Source: Patescibacteria group bacterium (GTDB lineage Bacteria; Patescibacteriota; Minisyncoccia; Moranbacterales; UBA2206). Taken from it: 64,000 nt of DNA. Shown in pieces: positions 3,008 to 24,260 of the stretch. Position 1 is the first letter of the stretch; each line of letters begins with the position of its first letter. The translations under genes and the position numbers were made by a program. The notes under the pieces are model-generated. The model was not told where the DNA came from. It worked only from the letters and a program-made list of their open reading frames with translations, and ran no database searches. Location: assembly GCA_030837625.1 (NCBI GenBank), contig JAUPKF010000004.1, positions 1,075 through 65,074 on the forward strand, written 5' to 3'.

Positions 3008-4060
3008 TCAGCTTTCTTCCGCGAGTCTCTTGATTTCGGAAAAGAAGACCTTTATCATATCCTCCTCATTGCCGGATTGCAGCTTTTCCCCGTATTTAAA
3101 GACTACAGTAGCACCCTTTCCTCCGGCAATGCCAATGTCAGCTTGTTTAGCCTCTCCTGGTCCGTTCACGGAACATCCCATAACAGCGATTTTGAAAGTA
3201 GAGCTTATCGTACTTGTCATTTCCTCCACCATCGAAGCGTACCTTTCAACGTCAAGCTGTTTTCGGGCGCAAGTTGGACAGGATATTAATTCCGGGCCGC
3301 GCTTTCTGATTCCAAGAGCATTAAGAATTCCCCAGCCGACTTTCACTTCTTGCTCGGGAGGGGCAGTGAGGGAAACACGCATAGTAGATCCGATGCCCTC
3401 ACGGAGAAGCACGCCGATGCCAAGGACGTTCTTGATAGTTCCCATGAAGCTAGTTCCGGCATGGGTTACGCCAAGATGAAGAGGGTATCGCACTTTCTCT
3501 GCCAAAAGTCTGTACGCAAGAATCATTTCTTCGACATCGCTGAATTTCACTGATATGGCGATGTTCGAGAAATTCAAGTCTTCCAAGATGCGAACGTGTT
3601 CAAGGCATGATTCCACGGCTGCTTCGGGTGTTGGTCCGTATTTGTTAAGCAGTTCTTTGGCGATTGAACCTGCGTTTACTCCGATACGGATAGGGACATC
3701 CTTATCTCGACACGCGTCAACTACCACTCGTACTTTCTTTTTGCTCCCGATGTTTCCAGGGTTGATTCGCACTTTGTCGACCCCCTGCTTTATGGCCTCG
3801 AGCGCGAGTTTATAATCGAAGTGAATGTCTGCCACCAATGGAATATGGATGCGCTCTTTGATTTTTCCCAGAGCCGTAGCCGCATCCATGTCGGGAATCC
3901 CCGCGCGGACAATTTCACATCCGACTTGTTCCAGGCGTTGAATTTGCTTTATGGTAGAACGCCAGTCGCGAGTGTCTGTGTTGGTCATGGATTGAATTGT
4001 AATGGGCGAGTTTCCGCCCATTATGACATTGCCAACTCGAATACTGAGAGTCTCTTCCAT
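3008..4060 (-). CDS. ispG: 4-hydroxy-3-methylbut-2-enyl diphosphate synthase IspG/GcpE
   Basis: 350 aa with N-terminal VGNVxxGGxSPITIQSMTNT, internal GTSFMG, and a C-terminal CPTCAR...GCSVNGPGE Fe-S Cys triad. Typical bacterial IspG. Confidence 0.9.
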   Translation of the reverse strand: MEETLSIRVGNVIMGGNSPITIQSMTNTDTRDWRSTIKQIQRLEQVGCEIVRAGIPDMDAATALGKIKERIHIPLVADIHFDYKLALEAIKQGVDKVRINPGNIGSKKKVRVVVDACRDKDVPIRIGVNAGSIAKELLNKYGPTPEAAVESCLEHVRILEDLNFSNIAISVKFSDVEEMILAYRLLAEKVRYPLHLGVTHAGTSFMGTIKNVLGIGVLLREGIGSTMRVSLTAPPEQEVKVGWGILNALGIRKRGPELISCPTCARKQLDVERYASMVEEMTSTISSTFKIAVMGCSVNGPGEAKQADIGIAGGKGATVVFKYGEKLQSGNEEDMIKVFFSEIKRLAEES

Positions 4061-4233
4061 AGCATTTCCTTCCGATTGTCGGGATTAATAGTTGATAAAG
4101 AGCGGATACGCAGTAAAAGAGTATCAAGCGGTTCTCTCTGTGTCAATCGCTTATTGTAAATTCATTATAGGGTTGTACATATACGCAATTTTGCTATTTT
4201 TGGCTTTTTCTTGTATATTTTAGTGGAAATATT

Positions 4234-5040
4234 ATGAAACCTATATACATCTTGAAAATTGGGGGAAGTGTGGCCACGTATAAGAATCGACTGGGCATGT
4301 CGACAAGAAAGACGCTCTTAAAAGAGATTGGCCGTTCGATCAAAAAAGCTTTGAGAAAAGACAGTTTTGGTTTGATCTTGATTCACGGCGCCGGAGCCAT
4401 GGGACATCAACTGGCTAAAAAATATAATCTAGCTGAGGGAACCGGCATAAATCCGAAAAAATGGCGCGGAGCATTGATTTCTCGTTTAGTTAATAATAAA
4501 TTGAACGTGGATATCACGGAGATACTAGTAAGTCAGGGACTTCGAATAGCGCCAGTTCATACGGCTACGGCGATTATTCAAAAAAATAAAAAAATAGACC
4601 ACTGCGATTTAGAAATAATCAAAGAAGCCTTGTGCCAAGGATGCATCCCTCTGCTTTATGGCGAAATGGTTTTCGATGTGGAGCTGGGGATGTCGATTTG
4701 TTCTGGCGATGCCATCGCGCCATATTTGGCGGAAAAATTGGGAGCGCAAAAGATTTTTTTTGCTTCTGATATTGACGGGGTGTTTACAAAAGATCCGCAT
4801 GTCTACAAGGGCGCAAGGTTGGTAAAAAAAATTAACCTGAAGGATGTTTCTCGAAAAGCAAGCCTGACTGATTCGCACAACATTGATACTACTGGCGGTC
4901 TTTTGGGAAAAATTCAGAAACTGGATGCTAAATTTGGAAATCGTCTGAAATCGATAGAAATTTTTAATGGATTCCAAAAAGATAATTACGAGAAAATTTT
5001 TGCCGGCAAAGATTTTTCTCATACTGTAATAATTCCATAA
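4234..5040 (+). CDS. Amino-acid-kinase-family protein, most consistent with isopentenyl phosphate kinase
   Basis: 268 aa. Gly-rich N-terminus KIGGSV and HGAGAMGH motif. Size and motifs fit IPK rather than aspartokinase or UMP kinase. Immediately adjacent to ispG. Confidence 0.55.
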   Translation: MKPIYILKIGGSVATYKNRLGMSTRKTLLKEIGRSIKKALRKDSFGLILIHGAGAMGHQLAKKYNLAEGTGINPKKWRGALISRLVNNKLNVDITEILVSQGLRIAPVHTATAIIQKNKKIDHCDLEIIKEALCQGCIPLLYGEMVFDVELGMSICSGDAIAPYLAEKLGAQKIFFASDIDGVFTKDPHVYKGARLVKKINLKDVSRKASLTDSHNIDTTGGLLGKIQKLDAKFGNRLKSIEIFNGFQKDNYEKIFAGKDFSHTVIIP

Positions 5041-5051
5041 AAAAACGGCCG

Positions 5052-5537
5052 CTAGGCCGTTGCGGAAAGCTCGTTGAGCAATTCCGCTAGATGATTGTCG
5101 GTGAAGTGCTTAAGAATGGGCGCAACTTCAACGCGAATGTATTGTTGAAGAAGCTCGTCTATGGTTTTCCAGCCAGCGAACCGAATGTCAACGTCATTAG
5201 GAACGAAAGTTTCATTTGAATTACCAAGATACAAGCCGTATCCGTAAACAGTATAGATGTCGTTTCTACCGGGAATCAATTGGAAGTACGGCGCGGCAAT
5301 GTTAATGATTTTGGCTTCGCTCTTTTTAATGCCGACTTCTTCTGTAAGAAGACGCAGGATTGTTTCTTTGAAACTGCCGTCTTTTTCTTCGAATGTTTCC
5401 AGCGGAAAAGACTTCATTCCTTGAAATTTGTGGTACCGGGGTTTACTCCCAAGCTCTTCTACCGTAAAAAGCTTTAGAGAATCGTTTGCTGTTTTACTAA
5501 ACAGCAAAAAACCGACGCCAAAAATTCTTTCGCCCAT
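5052..5537 (-). CDS. NUDIX hydrolase
   Basis: Nudix box GMKSFPLETFEEKDGSFKETILRLLTEEVGI. Preferred start is the ATG at 5537 (MGERIFG), preceded by GAAGGAG. The ORF track extends the frame to 5600. Confidence 0.7.
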   Translation of the reverse strand: MGERIFGVGFLLFSKTANDSLKLFTVEELGSKPRYHKFQGMKSFPLETFEEKDGSFKETILRLLTEEVGIKKSEAKIINIAAPYFQLIPGRNDIYTVYGYGLYLGNSNETFVPNDVDIRFAGWKTIDELLQQYIRVEVAPILKHFTDNHLAELLNELSATA

Positions 5538-5676
5538 ATCAATCTCCTTCGGAGTACTAGTTGTGAATGTGCTATGTGCCGACAATAATGAGATTATCAC
5601 GACATATGTTTTAGAGCAAGTCTTGTATACTTGTTACCCATAAATACAGTCAGAGTAACATAATAAAATCATTACG

Positions 5677-6156
5677 ATGGAAAAAATCATAATCAAAGTA
5701 GCTTCCTTGGTGGTCAACAAAAAAAATCCAGAAGAAATTCTTCTTATCAAAGAAAAGACCGAAAAAAATGATCTTGCTAAGTGGAACGTATTAAAGGGGA
5801 CGTGCCTCCTCGATAAAGAAACAGTTTTTCAGGCCGCCGAAAGAGAGTGCTTTGAAGAAGCTTCCATAAAAATAAAACTGACGAAATCACTTGGATGCTA
5901 CTTAATAAAAAAACACACTGACGGTTTCAGAATACAATTTAACTTTATAGCCGAAATTGTTTCAGGCGTTCCGCGCGTTCAGGACAAAAAATATCAAGAT
6001 AAACTCAATGAAAACATAACGGAATTACGCTGGTTCAACAAATCTCAAATAAAGAAAATGGGAACGGAAGAATTTGTATCAAAAAGGACAAAGATGGTCT
6101 TAATGGATTGGATAGGAGGAAAGACCTATCCGCTGGAAATGCTCCAACAAATGTAA
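5677..6156 (+). CDS. NUDIX hydrolase
   Basis: Nudix box GTCLLDKETVFQAAERECFEEASI (RExxEE). Confidence 0.7.
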   Translation: MEKIIIKVASLVVNKKNPEEILLIKEKTEKNDLAKWNVLKGTCLLDKETVFQAAERECFEEASIKIKLTKSLGCYLIKKHTDGFRIQFNFIAEIVSGVPRVQDKKYQDKLNENITELRWFNKSQIKKMGTEEFVSKRTKMVLMDWIGGKTYPLEMLQQM

Positions 6157-10547: not shown

Positions 10548-11201
10548 TCACATTTCTCCGTTCCATTCCTTGAAAAATCTGTTCAAATATTGCTCCAAAA
10601 ATTTATGCCTGCCTCTTGCCATCTTCTTGCCGGTTTTGGTATTCATCAAGTTTTTAAGTAAGAGCAATTTTTCATAAAAGTGATTGATGCTTGTGCTGTC
10701 AGCGTTTTTGTATTCCTCAAATGATTTGTGTTTCGTAACTTTGATTACAGGGTTATACATTTCTCTCCCCTTGGCTCCGCCATAAGCGAAAACTCTAGCT
10801 ATTCCGATCGCTCCGATAGCGTCCAATCGATCGGCATCCTGAACCACCATACCCTCCAAAGTTTTTATTTCCGACTTTACTCCCGCGCCCTTAAAGGACA
10901 CGCCTTTAACAATATCGCATACATCCTTAATAATTTCTTCGTCCACTCCTTGCTTTTCTAACCAAACCCTCGAGACTTTTGCTCCAATAGTGTCATCCCC
11001 GTTATGAAATTTAAAATCAGCGATATCATGAAGCAATGCTCCAAGCTCCACAATAAACATATCCGCTTTTTCTTTTTTCCCTATATGCACGGCATTTTTC
11101 CAAACACGATAAACATGCCACCAATCATGGCCTGAGCCTTCACCAGCCATTTTTTCTTTCACAAATTTTTCAGTATCCTTAATTATTTGTTTCTTGTTCA
11201 T
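10548..11201 (-). CDS. HD-superfamily metal-dependent phosphohydrolase
   Basis: GHDWWHVYRV, LLHDIAD, QDADRLDAIGAIGIAR are classic HD hydrolase motifs. Confidence 0.75.
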   Translation of the reverse strand: MNKKQIIKDTEKFVKEKMAGEGSGHDWWHVYRVWKNAVHIGKKEKADMFIVELGALLHDIADFKFHNGDDTIGAKVSRVWLEKQGVDEEIIKDVCDIVKGVSFKGAGVKSEIKTLEGMVVQDADRLDAIGAIGIARVFAYGGAKGREMYNPVIKVTKHKSFEEYKNADSTSINHFYEKLLLLKNLMNTKTGKKMARGRHKFLEQYLNRFFKEWNGEM

Positions 11202-11725
11202 AACAATTTTTGGGCGTCTTTAATAATTTTTACGTTATCTGCTGAATTGTAAAACCGTATATTTTTGATATCCTCCAGACTTATCCACTCTGGCATACCG
11301 GCATACTTTTTCTCGTGCTCATCAAAATTTTCAGTCGACAGCTCGCCGCCGATTCTTTCGCATAAATGGTAAATTAAAATAGAATGGACGAATTTATCTT
11401 TGCTAAAGGGCAATTTAAAAAATGAATTCTCGCAAGACGCCACTTTGCCAATTTTTACTTCCAATCCGGTTTCTTCTTTAACTTCTCTTTTCAGGGCATC
11501 TTCTATGGTTTCTCCCAAATCCACGCCTCCACCAGGAAAATCATATCCGTCCCATTGTTTGGATAATAAAATTTTCCCTTTTTCAATAATAATCCCGTAA
11601 ACTGAAGGACGAAAAGTCAACTTGTCCACTGGCACCTTGAATTCTTTTCCGTTTATATCTGTGCAAATTACTTCTTTTTTTGACATATTCCGCATAATAA
11701 TATCATACCAGCTAAACCGCCACAT
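11198..11725 (-). CDS. NUDIX hydrolase
   Basis: Nudix box GGGVDLGETIEDALKREVKEETGL. Overlaps the downstream HD gene by ATGA, consistent with translational coupling. Confidence 0.75.
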   Translation of the reverse strand: MWRFSWYDIIMRNMSKKEVICTDINGKEFKVPVDKLTFRPSVYGIIIEKGKILLSKQWDGYDFPGGGVDLGETIEDALKREVKEETGLEVKIGKVASCENSFFKLPFSKDKFVHSILIYHLCERIGGELSTENFDEHEKKYAGMPEWISLEDIKNIRFYNSADNVKIIKDAQKLL

Positions 11726-20321: not shown

Positions 20322-20354
20322 CGTCAAATCAAAAACGACTCCTTATGAGTCGTT
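20322..20354 (-). terminator. Bidirectional intrinsic terminator downstream of dnaK
   Basis: aaaaacgactccttatgagtcgttttt: perfect 9-bp stem flanked by an A-run and a T-run. Confidence 0.75.
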
Positions 20355-20372
20355 TTTGATTTACTCCAAGAT

Positions 20373-22304
20373 TTATTTTTTATCTCCATCTTCAGACTTT
20401 TTCGTCTCGGCGTCTTTCACGTCCCCTTCTTTCGGTTGCCCATCCGCCGATGAGGCTTTTTGAAACTCGTCCAATGGATTTGTTCCTTTGCTATCGCTCG
20501 CCGCTTTATATAACTTCTCCCCGATCTTTTGCGCCGCTTGCGACATCTCCTCTGTAGCCTTTTTTATCTCCTCGACCGAATCGCCGTCTTTTACTTTTTT
20601 GAGTTTCTCAATAGCTTCTTCGACCGGCTTCTTTTCTTCGGCCGTAATTTTGTCACCGGCGTCGCGAATGGCTTTTTCCGTGGTAAAGACCAAAGTATCG
20701 GCCATGTTGCGGGTTTCCACCAGTTCTTTTTTCTTTTTGTCTTCCTCTGCGTGCAACTCGGCATCTTTTTTCATCTTTTCCACTTCTTCCTTGGAAAGAC
20801 CGGTGGACGCTTCAATGCGAATGGATTGTTCCTTGCCGGTCGCCTTGTCCTTGGCTTTCACCGACAAAATTCCGTTAGCGTCAATATCAAAAGTCACTTC
20901 CACTTGCGGAATGCCGCGCGGACTTGGCGGAATGCCGTCCAAGATAAATCTTCCCAATGTCTTGTTGTCCGCGGCCATTTCCCGCTCACCTTGCAAAACG
21001 TGAATTTCTACCGACGGCTGGTTGTCGGCGGCGGTAGAAAATATTTGGGATTTTGCCGTCGGCACGGTCGTATTTCTTTCAATAAGAGGAGTGCGCACAC
21101 CGCCCATTGTTTCAATGCCAAGCGTCAGCGGAGTAACATCCAGAAGCAAAACGTCTTTCACATCCCCTTGCAAAACTCCTCCCTGGATCGCCGCCCCAAG
21201 CGCCACCACTTCGTCCGGGTTGACGCTAAGATTAACTTTCTTTCCAAAAAAATCTTCCACGGTTTTCACCACCAGCGGCATCCTTGTCATTCCTCCGACC
21301 ATCACGATTTCATTAATATCTTTAGTTTCCAATTTCGCGTCCGCCAAAGATTTTTTCACCGGCTCAAGAGTCTTAGCAATCAAACCCCCAACCAACTCTT
21401 CCAATTTGGCGCGAGTCAACTTCATTACCAAATGCTTCGGCCCGTTGGCGTCAGTCGTGATGAAGGGCTGATTGATTTCCGTTTCCATAGCCGTGGAAAG
21501 TTCAATCTTGGCTTTTTCCGCCGCTTCTTTGATACGCTGCAACGCCAAAGGATCATTGCCCAAATCCATTCCTTCCTGTTTTTTGAATTCGTCAATTATC
21601 CAACGGATGATCACTTGATCAAAATCATCCCCTCCCAAATGCGTATCGCCGTTGGTAGATTTTACCTCCACCGTATCATCGCCCACTTCCAAAATGGAAA
21701 TATCAAAAGTTCCGCCGCCCAAATCGTAAACAGCTATTTTTTCGTCTTTTTTCTTATTAAACCCGTACGCCAAAGCCGCCGCCGTCGGTTCGTTAATAAT
21801 TCTCTTAACAGTAAGTCCCGCAATCTCGCCGGCTTCCTTGGTAGCTTTTCGCTGGGCGTCGTCAAAATAGGCCGGGACGGTGATAACCGCTTCGGTTATT
21901 TTTTCGCCTAGTTTTTCTTCCGCGTCCGCCTTGAGTTTTCCTAGAATCATCGCTGAAATTTCCTGCGGCGTGTAATCCTTATCCCCCATTTTCACCTTCA
22001 CGCCGCCATTTGATTTTTCAATTTTGTACGGCATCAACTTCAAATCCCTTTGCACTTCCTCATCCTCGAAAGCGCGTCCGATAAGGCGCTTGATGGAATA
22101 CAAAGTATTGCCCGGGTTGGTCACCGCCTGCCTTTTCGCTAAAAGGCCGACCAGTCTTTCACCGGATTTTGCGATCGCCGCCATCGAAGGCGTCGTGCGG
22201 TTGCCTTCCTTGTTTTCGATAATTGACGGACTGCCTCCCTCCACCACCGCCATCGCGGAATTGGTCGTCCCCAAGTCGATGCCTAATATTTTCGCCATAA
22301 TCAT
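20373..22304 (-). CDS. dnaK: Chaperone DnaK (Hsp70)
   Basis: [31 protein letters not shown] and the Hsp70 C-terminal lid. Real start taken at [16 protein letters not shown] (ATG at 22304), since the ORF-track upstream extension reads the intergenic region. Confidence 0.95.
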
Positions 22305-22316
22305 TTTAGTTCTCAA

Positions 22317-22339
22317 GTTTAGACTTTTTAAGTCTAAAC
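22317..22339. promoter_or_regulatory. 10-bp inverted repeat 13 nt upstream of the dnaK start codon (not CIRCE)
   Basis: gtttagactt-ttt-aagtctaaac. Confidence 0.5.
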
Positions 22340-22504
22340 CCAAAACTTTATTAACATTTTTTAAATCTGTCTTAAATCCCAAATTACAAGCACCAAATTC
22401 CAAATAAATCCAAAGTTCCTAATTTTCAAAATTCAAAACCGTTTTGAATTTTGGTTATTGTAACTTATTTGGAATTTGTAATTTTGGATTTGTAATTTTT
22501 TAAA

Positions 22505-23368
22505 TCACTCCACCGTCACTCTCGCCGCCCTAATTACCCTCTCATCAATCCTATACCCTTTCTGCAGTACCTTCTTTACTCTGTTTTCTTTTGTTTCATG
22601 TTTTATGTTTCGTGCTTCATGACTGACCGCTTCCATAACCGACGGATCAAAATCATCCCCCGTCTTTACTACAATTTCCTTCACTCCGTTATCTTCCAAA
22701 ACTTTCTCCAGCTGTTTTTGAATATGCATTATCCCCGTCACCCACGGACTTGATTTCTCGCTTTCCGGAACGTGGCCAGTAGAAGCATAAAAGTTATCCA
22801 ACACCGGCAGAATTTCCAAAATCAAATTCATATTGCCGAACGCGACCAGCTCTTTCTGTGAATCCGCTTGCCGTTTTTTGTAGTTTTCAAAGTCCGCTTG
22901 GCATCTTTTCCAGCCTTCCAAATATTTTTCCGCGTTCATATGCCACACCGCTTTGGCAATGGACTTTTTCATCCAGGATTTATATTCGGCATTTTTTTCA
23001 ATATTTTCCGCCGCTTCCCACGTGTAACCATTATGTTCTTTACTAAGAATGATTTTCCCGCCTGAATATTTCACCAGATAATCGATATATACCGCCTGGT
23101 CATTGGCCGAACTGGCTTTCACAGTGTTAAGCGGCGCCACAATTTCAAACCCGACTTCGCCAAGTTCTTCGCGAATTTCCCTACCCAACGCTTCTTTCAA
23201 ACTTTCCTCCGGATCCAGTTTCCCTCCCGGAAAACTCCACTGCCCGTAATTTTTCACGAAATAGCTGCCCTTGTCTTTCATCTCCAACAGCAAAAACTTG
23301 TCCTGTTTTTCGTCATACATCACCGCCTTTACGACCGCCGACAGTTTGTATTTTTCTTTATTTTCCAT
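22505..23368 (-). CDS. grpE: NUDIX-GrpE fusion protein (nucleotide exchange factor with N-terminal Nudix domain)
   Basis: Residues 1 to about 130 carry Nudix box GGKLDPEESLKEALGREIREELGE. The C-terminal 150 aa carry GrpE motifs ADFENYKKR, LPVLDNF, GDDFDPSVMEAV. Single uninterrupted frame between hrcA and dnaK. Confidence 0.8.
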   Translation of the reverse strand: MENKEKYKLSAVVKAVMYDEKQDKFLLLEMKDKGSYFVKNYGQWSFPGGKLDPEESLKEALGREIREELGEVGFEIVAPLNTVKASSANDQAVYIDYLVKYSGGKIILSKEHNGYTWEAAENIEKNAEYKSWMKKSIAKAVWHMNAEKYLEGWKRCQADFENYKKRQADSQKELVAFGNMNLILEILPVLDNFYASTGHVPESEKSSPWVTGIMHIQKQLEKVLEDNGVKEIVVKTGDDFDPSVMEAVSHEARNIKHETKENRVKKVLQKGYRIDERVIRAARVTVE

Positions 23369-23376
23369 AGGCGTAT

Positions 23377-24114
23377 TTAAAAAATCATAATTATTAGCGC
23401 GACCGTTCCGGTTCCGGCTATCAAAGTTTTTACATAATCCAAAAGCGATTTGTTGCGGGCGTATTTCATTCTTTTTGGCCCGATAATCGCCAAAAGTCCG
23501 CGCTCGCCCTCTTTCGTCCGATACGGCGAGACCACCATGGAGCAGTTAGGTATTTCCTTGATGGGATTTTCTTTCCCGATAAAAATTTTCGTTTCCCCGT
23601 CCCTGACTTTTCCGAGAATCGTTTCCACGTTTTCATCGATATAGTCCAAAATTTCCGCCACTTTACAAAACTCGTCAATCTCGCGAAACTCGGGGTTTTC
23701 CAAAAGTTCCGAAATGCCAAAATCATAGTAATCTTTGTTCGCGCCGGAGATGGCCAAGCCCCCGGAGATGGACGACAACAGCTTGGCGGTGGTTCGGGAG
23801 AGTTTCGTATTTTGCGCTTTGAGCTTGAGAAGTTCAGTTTGCAGTTTTTTTTGATCGCTCAAACTCAATTTTTGATCCGGCATTATTTTCTCCACGAAAA
23901 ACCGGTAGCCTTTGTCGGTGGGAATGCGGCCGGCGGAAGTGTGCGGCTGGTGGAGATACCCCGCTTTTTCCAACTCGTTCATATCGTTCCTAACAGTGGC
24001 CGGACTTATTTTCAAGCCGTATTTTTCCGCCAAAACTTTCGACCCGACCGGAACAGCCGTGTTGGTATATTCTTCAATAACCGCGGATAATATTTTCTTA
24101 TGCCTGGATTCCAT
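23377..24114 (-). CDS. hrcA: Heat-inducible transcription repressor HrcA
   Basis: 245 aa. N-terminal winged helix ILSAVIEEYTNTAVPVGSKVLAEKYGLKISPATVRNDMNELE. CIRCE lies immediately upstream. Confidence 0.9.
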   Translation of the reverse strand: MESRHKKILSAVIEEYTNTAVPVGSKVLAEKYGLKISPATVRNDMNELEKAGYLHQPHTSAGRIPTDKGYRFFVEKIMPDQKLSLSDQKKLQTELLKLKAQNTKLSRTTAKLLSSISGGLAISGANKDYYDFGISELLENPEFREIDEFCKVAEILDYIDENVETILGKVRDGETKIFIGKENPIKEIPNCSMVVSPYRTKEGERGLLAIIGPKRMKYARNKSLLDYVKTLIAGTGTVALIIMIF

Positions 24115-24135
24115 ATTGGCATTATATATCCCCCG

Positions 24136-24162
24136 TTAGCACTCGTCAAGTCCGAGTGCTAA
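24136..24162. promoter_or_regulatory. CIRCE operator (HrcA binding site)
   Basis: TTAGCACTC-gtcaagtcc-GAGTGCTAA, a perfect match to the TTAGCACTC-N9-GAGTGCTAA consensus, 22 nt upstream of the hrcA start. Confidence 0.9.
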
Positions 24163-24260
24163 TTATCATTTTATACTACATTTTTAAGTTGTCAATATTG
24201 TGCATAAAAAAAGCGGCGATGATTCGCCGCGAAAATAGTTTACATTTGAAAAGCAAAGGG

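Follow-up and report, generated by a model that had tools for sequence, protein, structure and literature searches.

The gene grpE in a stretch of 64,000 nucleotides from a member of the Patescibacteria (contig JAUPKF010000004.1, positions 1,075 to 65,074; the whole of this stretch is referred to here as the window) encodes a protein in which a Nudix hydrolase domain is joined to the DnaK nucleotide exchange factor GrpE. It is probable that this protein is bifunctional and vertically inherited in a clade of the Patescibacteria, being both a GrpE and a Nudix pyrophosphohydrolase under the control of HrcA and the CIRCE operator (controlling inverted repeat of chaperone expression), and that the logic of the fusion is one of co-regulation and scaffolding. 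GrpE is among the best-studied co-chaperones. Taken singly, the two domains and the operon have nothing unusual about them; what is out of the ordinary is that they are combined, that the combination is conserved, that it takes the place of a functionally important tail of GrpE, and that modules are swapped.

Architecture of the fusion protein

The open reading frame (ORF) at 22505..23368 on the minus strand starts with ATG and has 287 codons and a stop, with no internal stop codons in the ORF listing. Pfam recognises NUDIX (PF00293) at residues 11-137 (E 8.7e-13, 48.9 bits against a cutoff of 21.1) and GrpE (PF01025) at residues 137-286 (E 1.8e-36, 125.7 bits against a cutoff of 25.8; profile positions 20-163 of 165). 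The single-frame protein of 287 residues with a Nudix and a GrpE half, as described in the first-pass annotation of this DNA, is therefore present as one ORF with both Pfam domains. The NCBIfam models divide the protein in a similar way, with a Nudix hydrolase model covering residues 11-125 and more than 20 GrpE equivalog models each restricted to the C-terminal 140-170 residues. An NCBI protein that is 100% identical (P0001), encoded on a 65-kb contig, is named 'MAG: molecular chaperone GrpE [Patescibacteria group bacterium]'. The features of the fusion, as seen in the translation, the alignments and an AlphaFold2 (AF2) model with its predicted local distance difference test (pLDDT) scores, are as follows.

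22505..23368, minus strand: Nudix-GrpE fusion ORF, which begins 8 nt past the hrcA stop codon (ORF listing, Pfam, NCBIfam)
22979..23344, minus strand: Nudix hydrolase domain core, residues 9-130 (Pfam, AF2 pLDDT above 90, Foldseek, profile)
23156..23224, minus strand: Nudix box, residues 49-71, GKLDPEESLKEALGREIREELGE (translation and alignment)
22835..22978, minus strand: predicted continuous 48-residue helix, residues 131-178; its N-terminal third is the Nudix C-terminal helix and from residue 146 on it is the GrpE stalk (AF2, BLASTP, phmmer)
22691..22831, minus strand: GrpE short helices, residues 180-226, the four-helix-bundle part of the dimer and the most conserved part of the family (AF2)
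22508..22684, minus strand: GrpE C-terminal beta-wing, residues 229-287, which binds the DnaK nucleotide-binding domain (AF2 and alignments to 4ANI, 3A6M, 8GB3 and 1DKG)

Reality and distribution of the fusion

A frameshift or chimera could in principle have joined two adjacent genes, and this was checked. The same single-frame fusion is found in 185 proteins retrieved with family-specific hidden Markov models (HMMs) and in 20 species-level genomes. The G+C content, overall and at third codon positions, is 43.3 and 50.0% in one half of the ORF and 44.2 and 51.0% in the other, with a window average of 43.8%. Recurrence of the fusion in independent assemblies, together with the uniform composition across the junction, effectively excludes an artefact of this kind.

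Translation from an internal methionine, the other caveat attached to the first-pass annotation, was assessed in an alignment of 92 fused homologues that are 40–58% identical to the query. The column of Met144 contains Leu in 59 and Ile in 18 of these sequences and Met in only 2 of the 92, and a conserved internal start at this position is therefore rejected. The N-terminal Met is conserved in at least 90% of the aligned sequences.

Both Pfam domains are present in 118 of the best 120 clusters formed at 90% identity, in proteins of approximately 280–300 aa with identities down to 41%. Those proteins among the 120 that are named belong to Moranbacteria, Pacebacteria, Parcubacteria or Patescibacteria. 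When a profile of the 92 fused sequences was run against 1.84 billion representatives at 50% identity, approximately 70 of the best 150 were fused. The more divergent fused members are named Candidatus Magasanikbacteria or Patescibacteria, and no named member from outside the Candidate Phyla Radiation (CPR) occurs among the homologues found.

A survey of GrpE architectures in related lineages, which had been suggested as a check, used one genome per GTDB species and identified 40 loci with a close GrpE relative. Half of these (20 of 40) are Nudix-fused and 18 have a plain GrpE of approximately 170–210 aa, while in the other 2 the N-terminal extension is of another kind.

Nine of the surveyed loci (L005, L008, L012, L015, L020, L022, L024, L026 and L030) are titled 'uncultured Bdellovibrionales bacterium', yet contain a Moranbacteria-type hrcA-grpE-dnaK operon. 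In the seven of these that reach dnaK, the DnaK is 80–88% identical to that of the window. The titles look like mislabelled taxonomy.

The GrpE half and the lost tail

The AF2 model, based on the 92-sequence alignment, has a mean pLDDT of 89.2. Secondary structure assignment with DSSP gives helices at residues 131-178 (48 residues, uninterrupted), 180-198 and 208-226, and a beta domain at 229-286. With phmmer, query residues 148-286 align to residues 57-192 of E. coli GrpE and query residues 118-286 to residues 47-211 of G. kaustophilus GrpE. In this register query residue 131 falls at about residue 40 of E. coli GrpE, where the stalk of that protein begins. Solved GrpE structures (4ANI, 3A6M, 8GB3 and 1DKG) are matched at E values from 1e-13 to 2e-7. 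The invariant motifs ADFEN, PxxDNF and GY...R..R.V.V are all retained, and G271 and Y272 are invariant. The GrpE half is predicted to have the complete fold of an exchange factor, with a full stalk helix, the bundle helices and the beta-wing.

Homology to the GrpE of an unfused sister lineage, as detected by BLASTP, starts at residue 146 and is 62% identical over residues 146-287. Upstream of the homology start this sister protein has 51 residues that are acidic, rich in Lys and Glu, and contain Pro. In the fusion protein there are only about 8 residues before the first Nudix strand, and a disordered tail of the GrpE type is absent. The Pfam NUDIX match reaches residue 137, and the structural alignment with 3GRN is 132-135 columns long. 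As modelled, the last helix of the Nudix fold occupies residues 131-145 and is spliced helix-to-helix onto an intact stalk. The distance from W117 in the Nudix domain to W153 in GrpE is 35–40 residues in 112 of 113 sequences, and there is no flexible tether.

The claim that the long thermosensor helix of GrpE has been largely replaced by the Nudix domain does not hold. The AF2 helix at 131-178 is unbroken and aligns with E. coli GrpE; replacement of the stalk is rejected on the phmmer register, this helix and the sister homology from residue 146. Because the helix is continuous and the sister homology starts at residue 146, it is the disordered tail that the Nudix domain replaces, with the stalk being kept.

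The tail is not without function in other bacteria. Deletion of the 42-residue tail of M. tuberculosis GrpE blocks GrpE-stimulated substrate release, and in solved DnaK-GrpE complexes the N-terminal end of the stalk adjoins the docked substrate-binding domain of DnaK, far from the nucleotide cleft (PMC10803776). Nuclear magnetic resonance of E. coli GrpE has the tail binding to the canonical substrate groove of DnaK through an IIM motif, which is described as highly conserved among bacteria (PMC12915176). According to a 2025 review, GrpE has one architecture that is conserved among the kingdoms, in which a disordered N-terminus is followed by the stalk, the short helices and the beta-wing (PMC12987570). 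In the model of the fusion protein, approximately 25–30 helical residues, or about 40 Å, would lie between the Nudix domain and the stalk segment that touches the DnaK nucleotide-binding domain, with the nucleotide cleft still farther away.

The Nudix domain

The first-pass annotation reported a complete Nudix box, and GKLDPEESLKEALGREIREELGE at 23156-23224(-) does fit the consensus GX5EX7REUXEEXGU save for its last hydrophobic position. G48, G49, E55, E64, E67, E68 and W117 are invariant in the 92 homologues, while R63 and E111 are each present in 91 of the 92 and G70 in 85. The complete set of metal-binding and catalytic residues of a Nudix enzyme is retained. Between the window and an 86%-identical relative (L011), the ratio of nonsynonymous to synonymous substitutions (dN/dS) in the Nudix half is 0.06 at a dS of approximately 1.2, a sign of strong purifying selection. 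The Nudix half is nevertheless the most divergent part of the protein, with a mean pairwise identity of 0.36 against 0.52 in the stalk, 0.67 in the bundle and 0.50 in the beta-wing. The invariant catalytic residues and the low dN/dS suggest that the Nudix half is an active pyrophosphohydrolase.

The predicted N-terminal domain has the alpha/beta/alpha fold of Nudix enzymes over residues 9-125, with pLDDT above 90. Foldseek returned 509 matches in the PDB at E≤1e-3, of which the top 50 are all Nudix enzymes. The best is 3grn (E 1e-10, template modelling (TM) score 0.79), which is also matched by the Nudix-domain profile at E 5e-23. E. coli MutT is matched by this profile at E 6.5e-10, more weakly than NudI, RppH or NUDT2. 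A search with the single sequence gave few candidates; the closest free-standing sequences in it are annotated as (deoxy)nucleoside triphosphate ((d)NTP) pyrophosphohydrolase or 8-oxo-dGTP diphosphatase, at E values of only about 1e-5. By these comparisons the domain is of the small, single-domain MutT/NudI/NudG/RppH/Ap4A-hydrolase type (Ap4A, diadenosine tetraphosphate). Its subfamily also occurs without GrpE, in four tandem Nudix-Nudix proteins (P0240, P0259, P0260 and P0290).

Three or more Nudix domains are encoded in the window. A free-standing Nudix gene at 11198-11725(-), which encodes 175 aa with a full box and scores 58.9 bits against the fused-domain HMM, is the paralogue in the window that is closest to the fused domain. 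It shares 4 nt with the start of an HD-domain gene at 10548-11201(-), which encodes 217 aa and in which the HD motifs were read by eye; the pair at 10548-11725(-) looks like a set of two nucleotide house-cleaning genes. A Nudix-like ORF at 5677-6156(+), of 159 aa, has a Pfam NUDIX match at E 9e-11 and a slightly degenerate box, and its divergently oriented neighbour at 5052-5600(-), of 182 aa, contains a Nudix-box-like stretch seen by eye.

Other N-terminal modules on GrpE

The Nudix domain is not the only module found at this position. Tandem Nudix-Nudix-GrpE proteins of 447–450 aa are represented by P0145, P0148, P0149, P0291 and P0292, with P0148 being present on 8 contigs of up to 391 kb. 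A second type of fusion has a domain of about 150 aa with an hGS...DxD motif directly before the YLxGWKR start of GrpE. It is found in loci L025, at 3171-4148(+), and L032, at approximately 4450-5417(+), and in approximately 11 protein clusters (P0296-P0305 and P0185). Free-standing homologues of this domain, of 160–172 aa, are abundant in Patescibacteria, where they are named 'nucleotidyltransferase family protein' and have no Pfam match above threshold. The AF2 model of the domain has a pLDDT of 89.8, and Foldseek matches it to ANT(2'')-Ia (E 1e-3, TM 0.57), the MenT1 toxin and CCA-adding enzymes; searches of PDB sequences and NCBIfam gave no significant matches to the extension.

Since two unrelated nucleotide-handling folds have been grafted at one point, the tip of GrpE may itself matter. 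This recurrent grafting, although only a hint, is the strongest indication in these sequences that the position of the fusion is of importance.

A GrpE of 288 aa (P0273) has an N-terminal extension of about 130 aa that is neither Nudix nor nucleotidyltransferase-like and has no Pfam match. This may be a further type of module.

Evolutionary history of the fusion

In a neighbour-joining tree of concatenated DnaK and HrcA, constructed without support values, the fused genomes form one group with a single nested plain pair. The corresponding tree of the GrpE domain, also without support values, is poorly resolved and has 4 fused sequences scattered among the plain ones. The simplest reading of these trees would be one old fusion that has been inherited vertically and occasionally lost. 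None of the 18 unfused loci has a Nudix gene less than about 5 kb away from grpE, and an origin by read-through of neighbouring genes is therefore unsupported.

Only three positions of DnaK (encoded at 20373-22298) separate the fused from the plain lineages. These are 97, 98 and 247, all in the nucleotide-binding domain, which are N, G and G in fused and G, E and S in plain lineages. The plain pair nested in the fused clade (L033 and L038) has the plain-type residues at 97 and 247, and N and S, neither of them the residue of the fused lineages, at 98. No position in the substrate-binding domain discriminates between the two. Co-variation of DnaK with the state of fusion was set aside, as three columns are too weak a signal and are confounded with phylogeny.

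The operon and its regulation

The fusion gene was described at first as part of a canonical hrcA-grpE-dnaK operon behind a CIRCE, and the sequence scan and Pfam agree, with a perfect CIRCE, hrcA upstream and dnaK downstream. The features of the operon, in the direction of transcription, are listed here.

24213..24230, minus strand: terminator of the upstream gene (scan)
24168..24195, minus strand: sigma-70-like promoter TTGACA-16-TAAAAT, 11 of 12 matches to the consensus (consensus scan only)
24136..24162, no strand assigned: CIRCE operator, perfect inverted repeat TTAGCACTC-N9-GAGTGCTAA, 0 mismatches
23377..24114, minus strand: hrcA, short form, 245 aa (Pfam HrcA C-terminal domain E 6.7e-23, HrcA_DNA-bdg E 6e-5)
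22299..22504, minus strand: grpE-dnaK spacer, 206 nt, AT-rich, with nested inverted repeats (folding)
20373..22298, minus strand: dnaK, starting at 22298 or at a second ATG at 22292 (Pfam HSP70 E 4.9e-255)
20325..20363, minus strand: hairpin resembling a terminator, with a T run after it, at the end of the operon past dnaK (scan)

The CIRCE begins 6 nt past the -10 element of the promoter, and no match to it occurred in 100 shuffles of the sequence. An exact CIRCE is found upstream of hrcA in 24 of the 40 related loci. In 38 of the 40, hrcA is upstream of grpE, and dnaK is downstream wherever the contig reaches that far; this gene order is common to fused and unfused relatives. There is no obvious Shine-Dalgarno sequence before the ATG of the fusion gene, and the hrcA and dnaK of the operon likewise have none.

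A second promoter-like site, TTGACG-17-TATAAT, is located at 24121-24149(-) and also has 11 of 12 matches to the consensus. Its -35 lies inside the loop and right arm of the CIRCE. This could be an alternative or tandem promoter that is occluded by HrcA.

The HrcA of the window has 245 aa, compared with about 340 aa in model bacteria, and ends in a hydrophobic stretch, LIAGTGTVALIIMIF. Hydrophobic HrcA C-termini are also present in a few related loci. The short HrcA could be a membrane-associated or truncated form.

The spacer between grpE and dnaK, at 22299-22504(-), is predicted to fold into a long nested hairpin with a minimum free energy of -53.4 kcal/mol (z = -6.0 against shuffled sequences). 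Within it are imperfect inverted repeats of 25 nt and a hairpin with 13 perfectly matched base pairs, and no G+C-rich terminator was found in it. The motif is absent elsewhere in the window, and among the relatives the grpE-dnaK spacer varies from 23 nt to 2.7 kb. The spacer could be an element for mRNA processing or stability that sets the ratio of grpE to dnaK.

Possible function of the fusion

As the operon has a perfect CIRCE and hrcA, the fusion protein would be made in the heat-shock response, and it would act as the DnaK nucleotide exchange factor of its host organisms. The parallel dimer of GrpE would then hold two Nudix domains side by side at the tip of the stalk. Since the C-terminal helix of the Nudix domain appears to run unbroken into the stalk, the mounting of the domain on the N-terminal tip is expected to be rigid. 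The most likely logic of such an arrangement is that attachment to GrpE has brought a nucleotide-cleaning or alarmone-degrading activity under stress control and made it dimeric. Candidate substrates are damaged (d)NTPs, dinucleoside polyphosphates (NpnN) such as Ap4A, or RNA 5' ends. Exchange itself would not be chemically driven by the Nudix activity. As the tail is lost, tail-mediated release of substrate from DnaK may be absent, or may have been taken over by the Nudix domain. Ap4A, the level of which increases upon heat shock, can be cross-linked to DnaK, GroEL and ClpB and is broken down by Nudix enzymes (review PMC10148737). It is an attractive candidate substrate, but is not favoured by the present data over damaged NTPs or RNA 5' ends.

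Several points weigh against this interpretation. Matches to MutT-like enzymes, NudI, BdRppH, NudG-like CTPases, MutT2 and Ap4A/Ap6A hydrolases, the last including the human and Aquifex Ap4A hydrolases and the Thermus Ap6A hydrolase, are all about equally good. Subfamilies of Nudix enzymes can be recognised by features downstream of the Nudix box: a Tyr at +16-18 (ApnA hydrolases), a Pro at +15-16 (ADP-ribose pyrophosphatases) or the motif SQPWPFPxS (NADH pyrophosphatases). These markers are absent from the family, in which neither Tyr nor Pro is conserved at the variable positions 86-89 and an SQPWPFP array is lacking. Because the matches score alike and the markers are missing, no substrate is assigned to the domain. 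A finer assignment was tried and rejected, as sequence, profile, fold and subfamily motifs give only 'small NTP/NpnN/RNA pyrophosphohydrolase'. The survey of GrpE was one of operon loci rather than whole genomes, and a second, plain GrpE may thus be encoded elsewhere. Expression of the fusion protein, dimerisation of its Nudix domains and its exchange activity are each predicted from the sequence. Finally, a separate gene in the operon would satisfy co-regulation, which leaves the conserved fusion, the fixed linker and the loss of the tail unexplained.

In a rival explanation, which is possible but doubtful, the Nudix domain takes a direct part in the chaperone cycle. The domain might replace the lost tail by contacting the substrate-binding domain of DnaK; it might destroy inhibitory Ap4A, damaged ATP or the ADP stripped off by GrpE, thereby favouring re-loading with ATP in energy-poor cells; it might be a nucleotide sensor that tunes GrpE; or it might act on DnaK itself. 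Such direct coupling would suit the location of the domain at the exit point of the tail, close to where the substrate-binding domain of DnaK docks, and the constraint of the linker to 35–40 residues without a flexible tether. It would also suit the loss of a tail that is reported as essential for release in M. tuberculosis GrpE from a gene that is still the GrpE of its operon, the placing of tandem Nudix domains and of a nucleotidyltransferase fold at the same spot in sister lineages, the cross-linking of Ap4A to DnaK, and the co-variation of DnaK positions 97, 98 and 247 with the state of fusion, including in the plain pair L033/L038. However, the Nudix domain, at the N-terminal extremity of the stalk, is estimated to be about 40 Å from the segment in contact with the nucleotide-binding domain, with the cleft beyond it, which makes channelling from the cleft unlikely. 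No position in the DnaK substrate-binding domain discriminates fused from plain lineages, the three columns that do could be plain phylogenetic signal, and the free-standing members of the Nudix subfamily indicate a role that is independent of GrpE.

At the other extreme, the two halves could have been joined by chance as a neutral 'Rosetta-stone' fusion, both being needed separately and without cooperation or a shared logic of regulation. Small genomes often contain domain fusions, evolution is more rapid in the Nudix half (mean pairwise identity 0.36 against 0.50–0.67 in the parts of GrpE) and approximately half of the related species use a plain GrpE. Against this are the precise helix-to-helix splice of constrained length, the lack of a Nudix gene next to grpE in unfused relatives as a source for read-through, the survival of the fusion to about 40% identity across lineages named Moranbacteria and Magasanikbacteria, and the independent use of the same site on GrpE by a second enzyme family; a neutral join is accordingly improbable. 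Hardly any weight can be given to an artefact, or to a start at Met144 that yields an ordinary GrpE. The missing Shine-Dalgarno sequence before the annotated ATG might seem to favour it, but hrcA and dnaK are the same in this respect, and an ATG 8 nt past the hrcA stop would suit translational coupling. A start at Met144 would strip the top of the stalk, this residue is Met in 2 of 92 homologues while the N-terminal Met is conserved, and the same single-frame architecture, uniform in composition at its junction, occurs in 185 proteins from independent assemblies. Co-regulation with scaffolding remains the preferred explanation of the fusion.

A broader proposal, which is a long shot, is that the N-terminal tip of the GrpE stalk in these Patescibacteria is a modular dock for nucleotide-modifying enzymes (Nudix, tandem Nudix or an ANT/MenT-like nucleotidyltransferase) that act on DnaK, its nucleotide or its clients. 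The chaperone might, for example, be switched by a cycle of nucleotidylation and its removal, or by the breakdown of Ap4A or ADP in its vicinity. Hsp70 is known to be regulated by enzymes elsewhere, as in the AMPylation of BiP by FICD, and a modular dock, if true, would be a bacterial counterpart.

Novelty and significance

The view that this is not a standard GrpE architecture is upheld by the literature. No description of Nudix-GrpE, tandem or nucleotidyltransferase-type GrpE fusions was found in a full-text literature search, and such fusions go unmentioned in the 2025 review (PMC12987570). One article in which the terms GrpE, Nudix and CPR occur together (PMC7159879) proved to be unrelated to the fusion. 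Database entries for the fusion are labelled plain 'GrpE' or have dual automatic labels.

Papers from 2024–2026 give the tail of GrpE a key role in the release of substrate from DnaK, and a large family with a conserved and apparently active enzyme in place of the tail is a natural experiment. Through it one can learn if the tail can be dispensed with, and if a link between the Hsp70 cycle and the metabolism of nucleotides or alarmones is feasible. The family is also relevant to the way in which CPR bacteria, with their reduced genomes and reliance on salvaged nucleotides, tie their stress response to the maintenance of the nucleotide pool. Should the coupling be no more than regulatory, this is a tidy but modest case of domain fusion.

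Comparison with known systems

The stalk, bundle helices and beta-wing are common to the fusion protein and to canonical GrpE (E. coli 1DKG, G. kaustophilus 4ANI, T. thermophilus 3A6M and M. tuberculosis 8GB3), as are the sequences ADFENYKKR and LPVLDNF, the KGYxxxxRVIRxAxV end and the hrcA-grpE-dnaK operon behind a CIRCE. Where canonical GrpE has a disordered tail of about 33–44 residues, the fusion has a folded enzyme of 130 residues, the last helix of which is continuous with the stalk. The GrpE of an unfused sister in the Moranbacteria (L016, 196 aa) has the same operon arrangement and CIRCE and is 62% identical from residue 146, but has its acidic tail of 51 residues in the place of the Nudix domain.

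Small Nudix enzymes share the box and fold of the fused domain. These include 3GRN (M. mazei, MutT-related), NudI (6DT3 and 3OGA), BdRppH (3EES), NudG-like CTPases (2RRK and 3GWY), MutT2 (5ZRC) and Ap4A/Ap6A hydrolases (3I7U, 3U53 and 1VC8), with TM scores of 0.65–0.82 normalised to the target, identities of 19–29% and no specificity motif recognised. Unlike the protein of the window, none of these named enzymes is fused to a co-chaperone. The closest parallel in arrangement is the nucleotidyltransferase-fold-GrpE of sister lineages, in which an enzyme domain replaces the tail at the same point and in the same operon. It differs in its ANT(2'')-Ia/MenT1-like fold and, at about 11 clusters, is much rarer than Nudix-GrpE.

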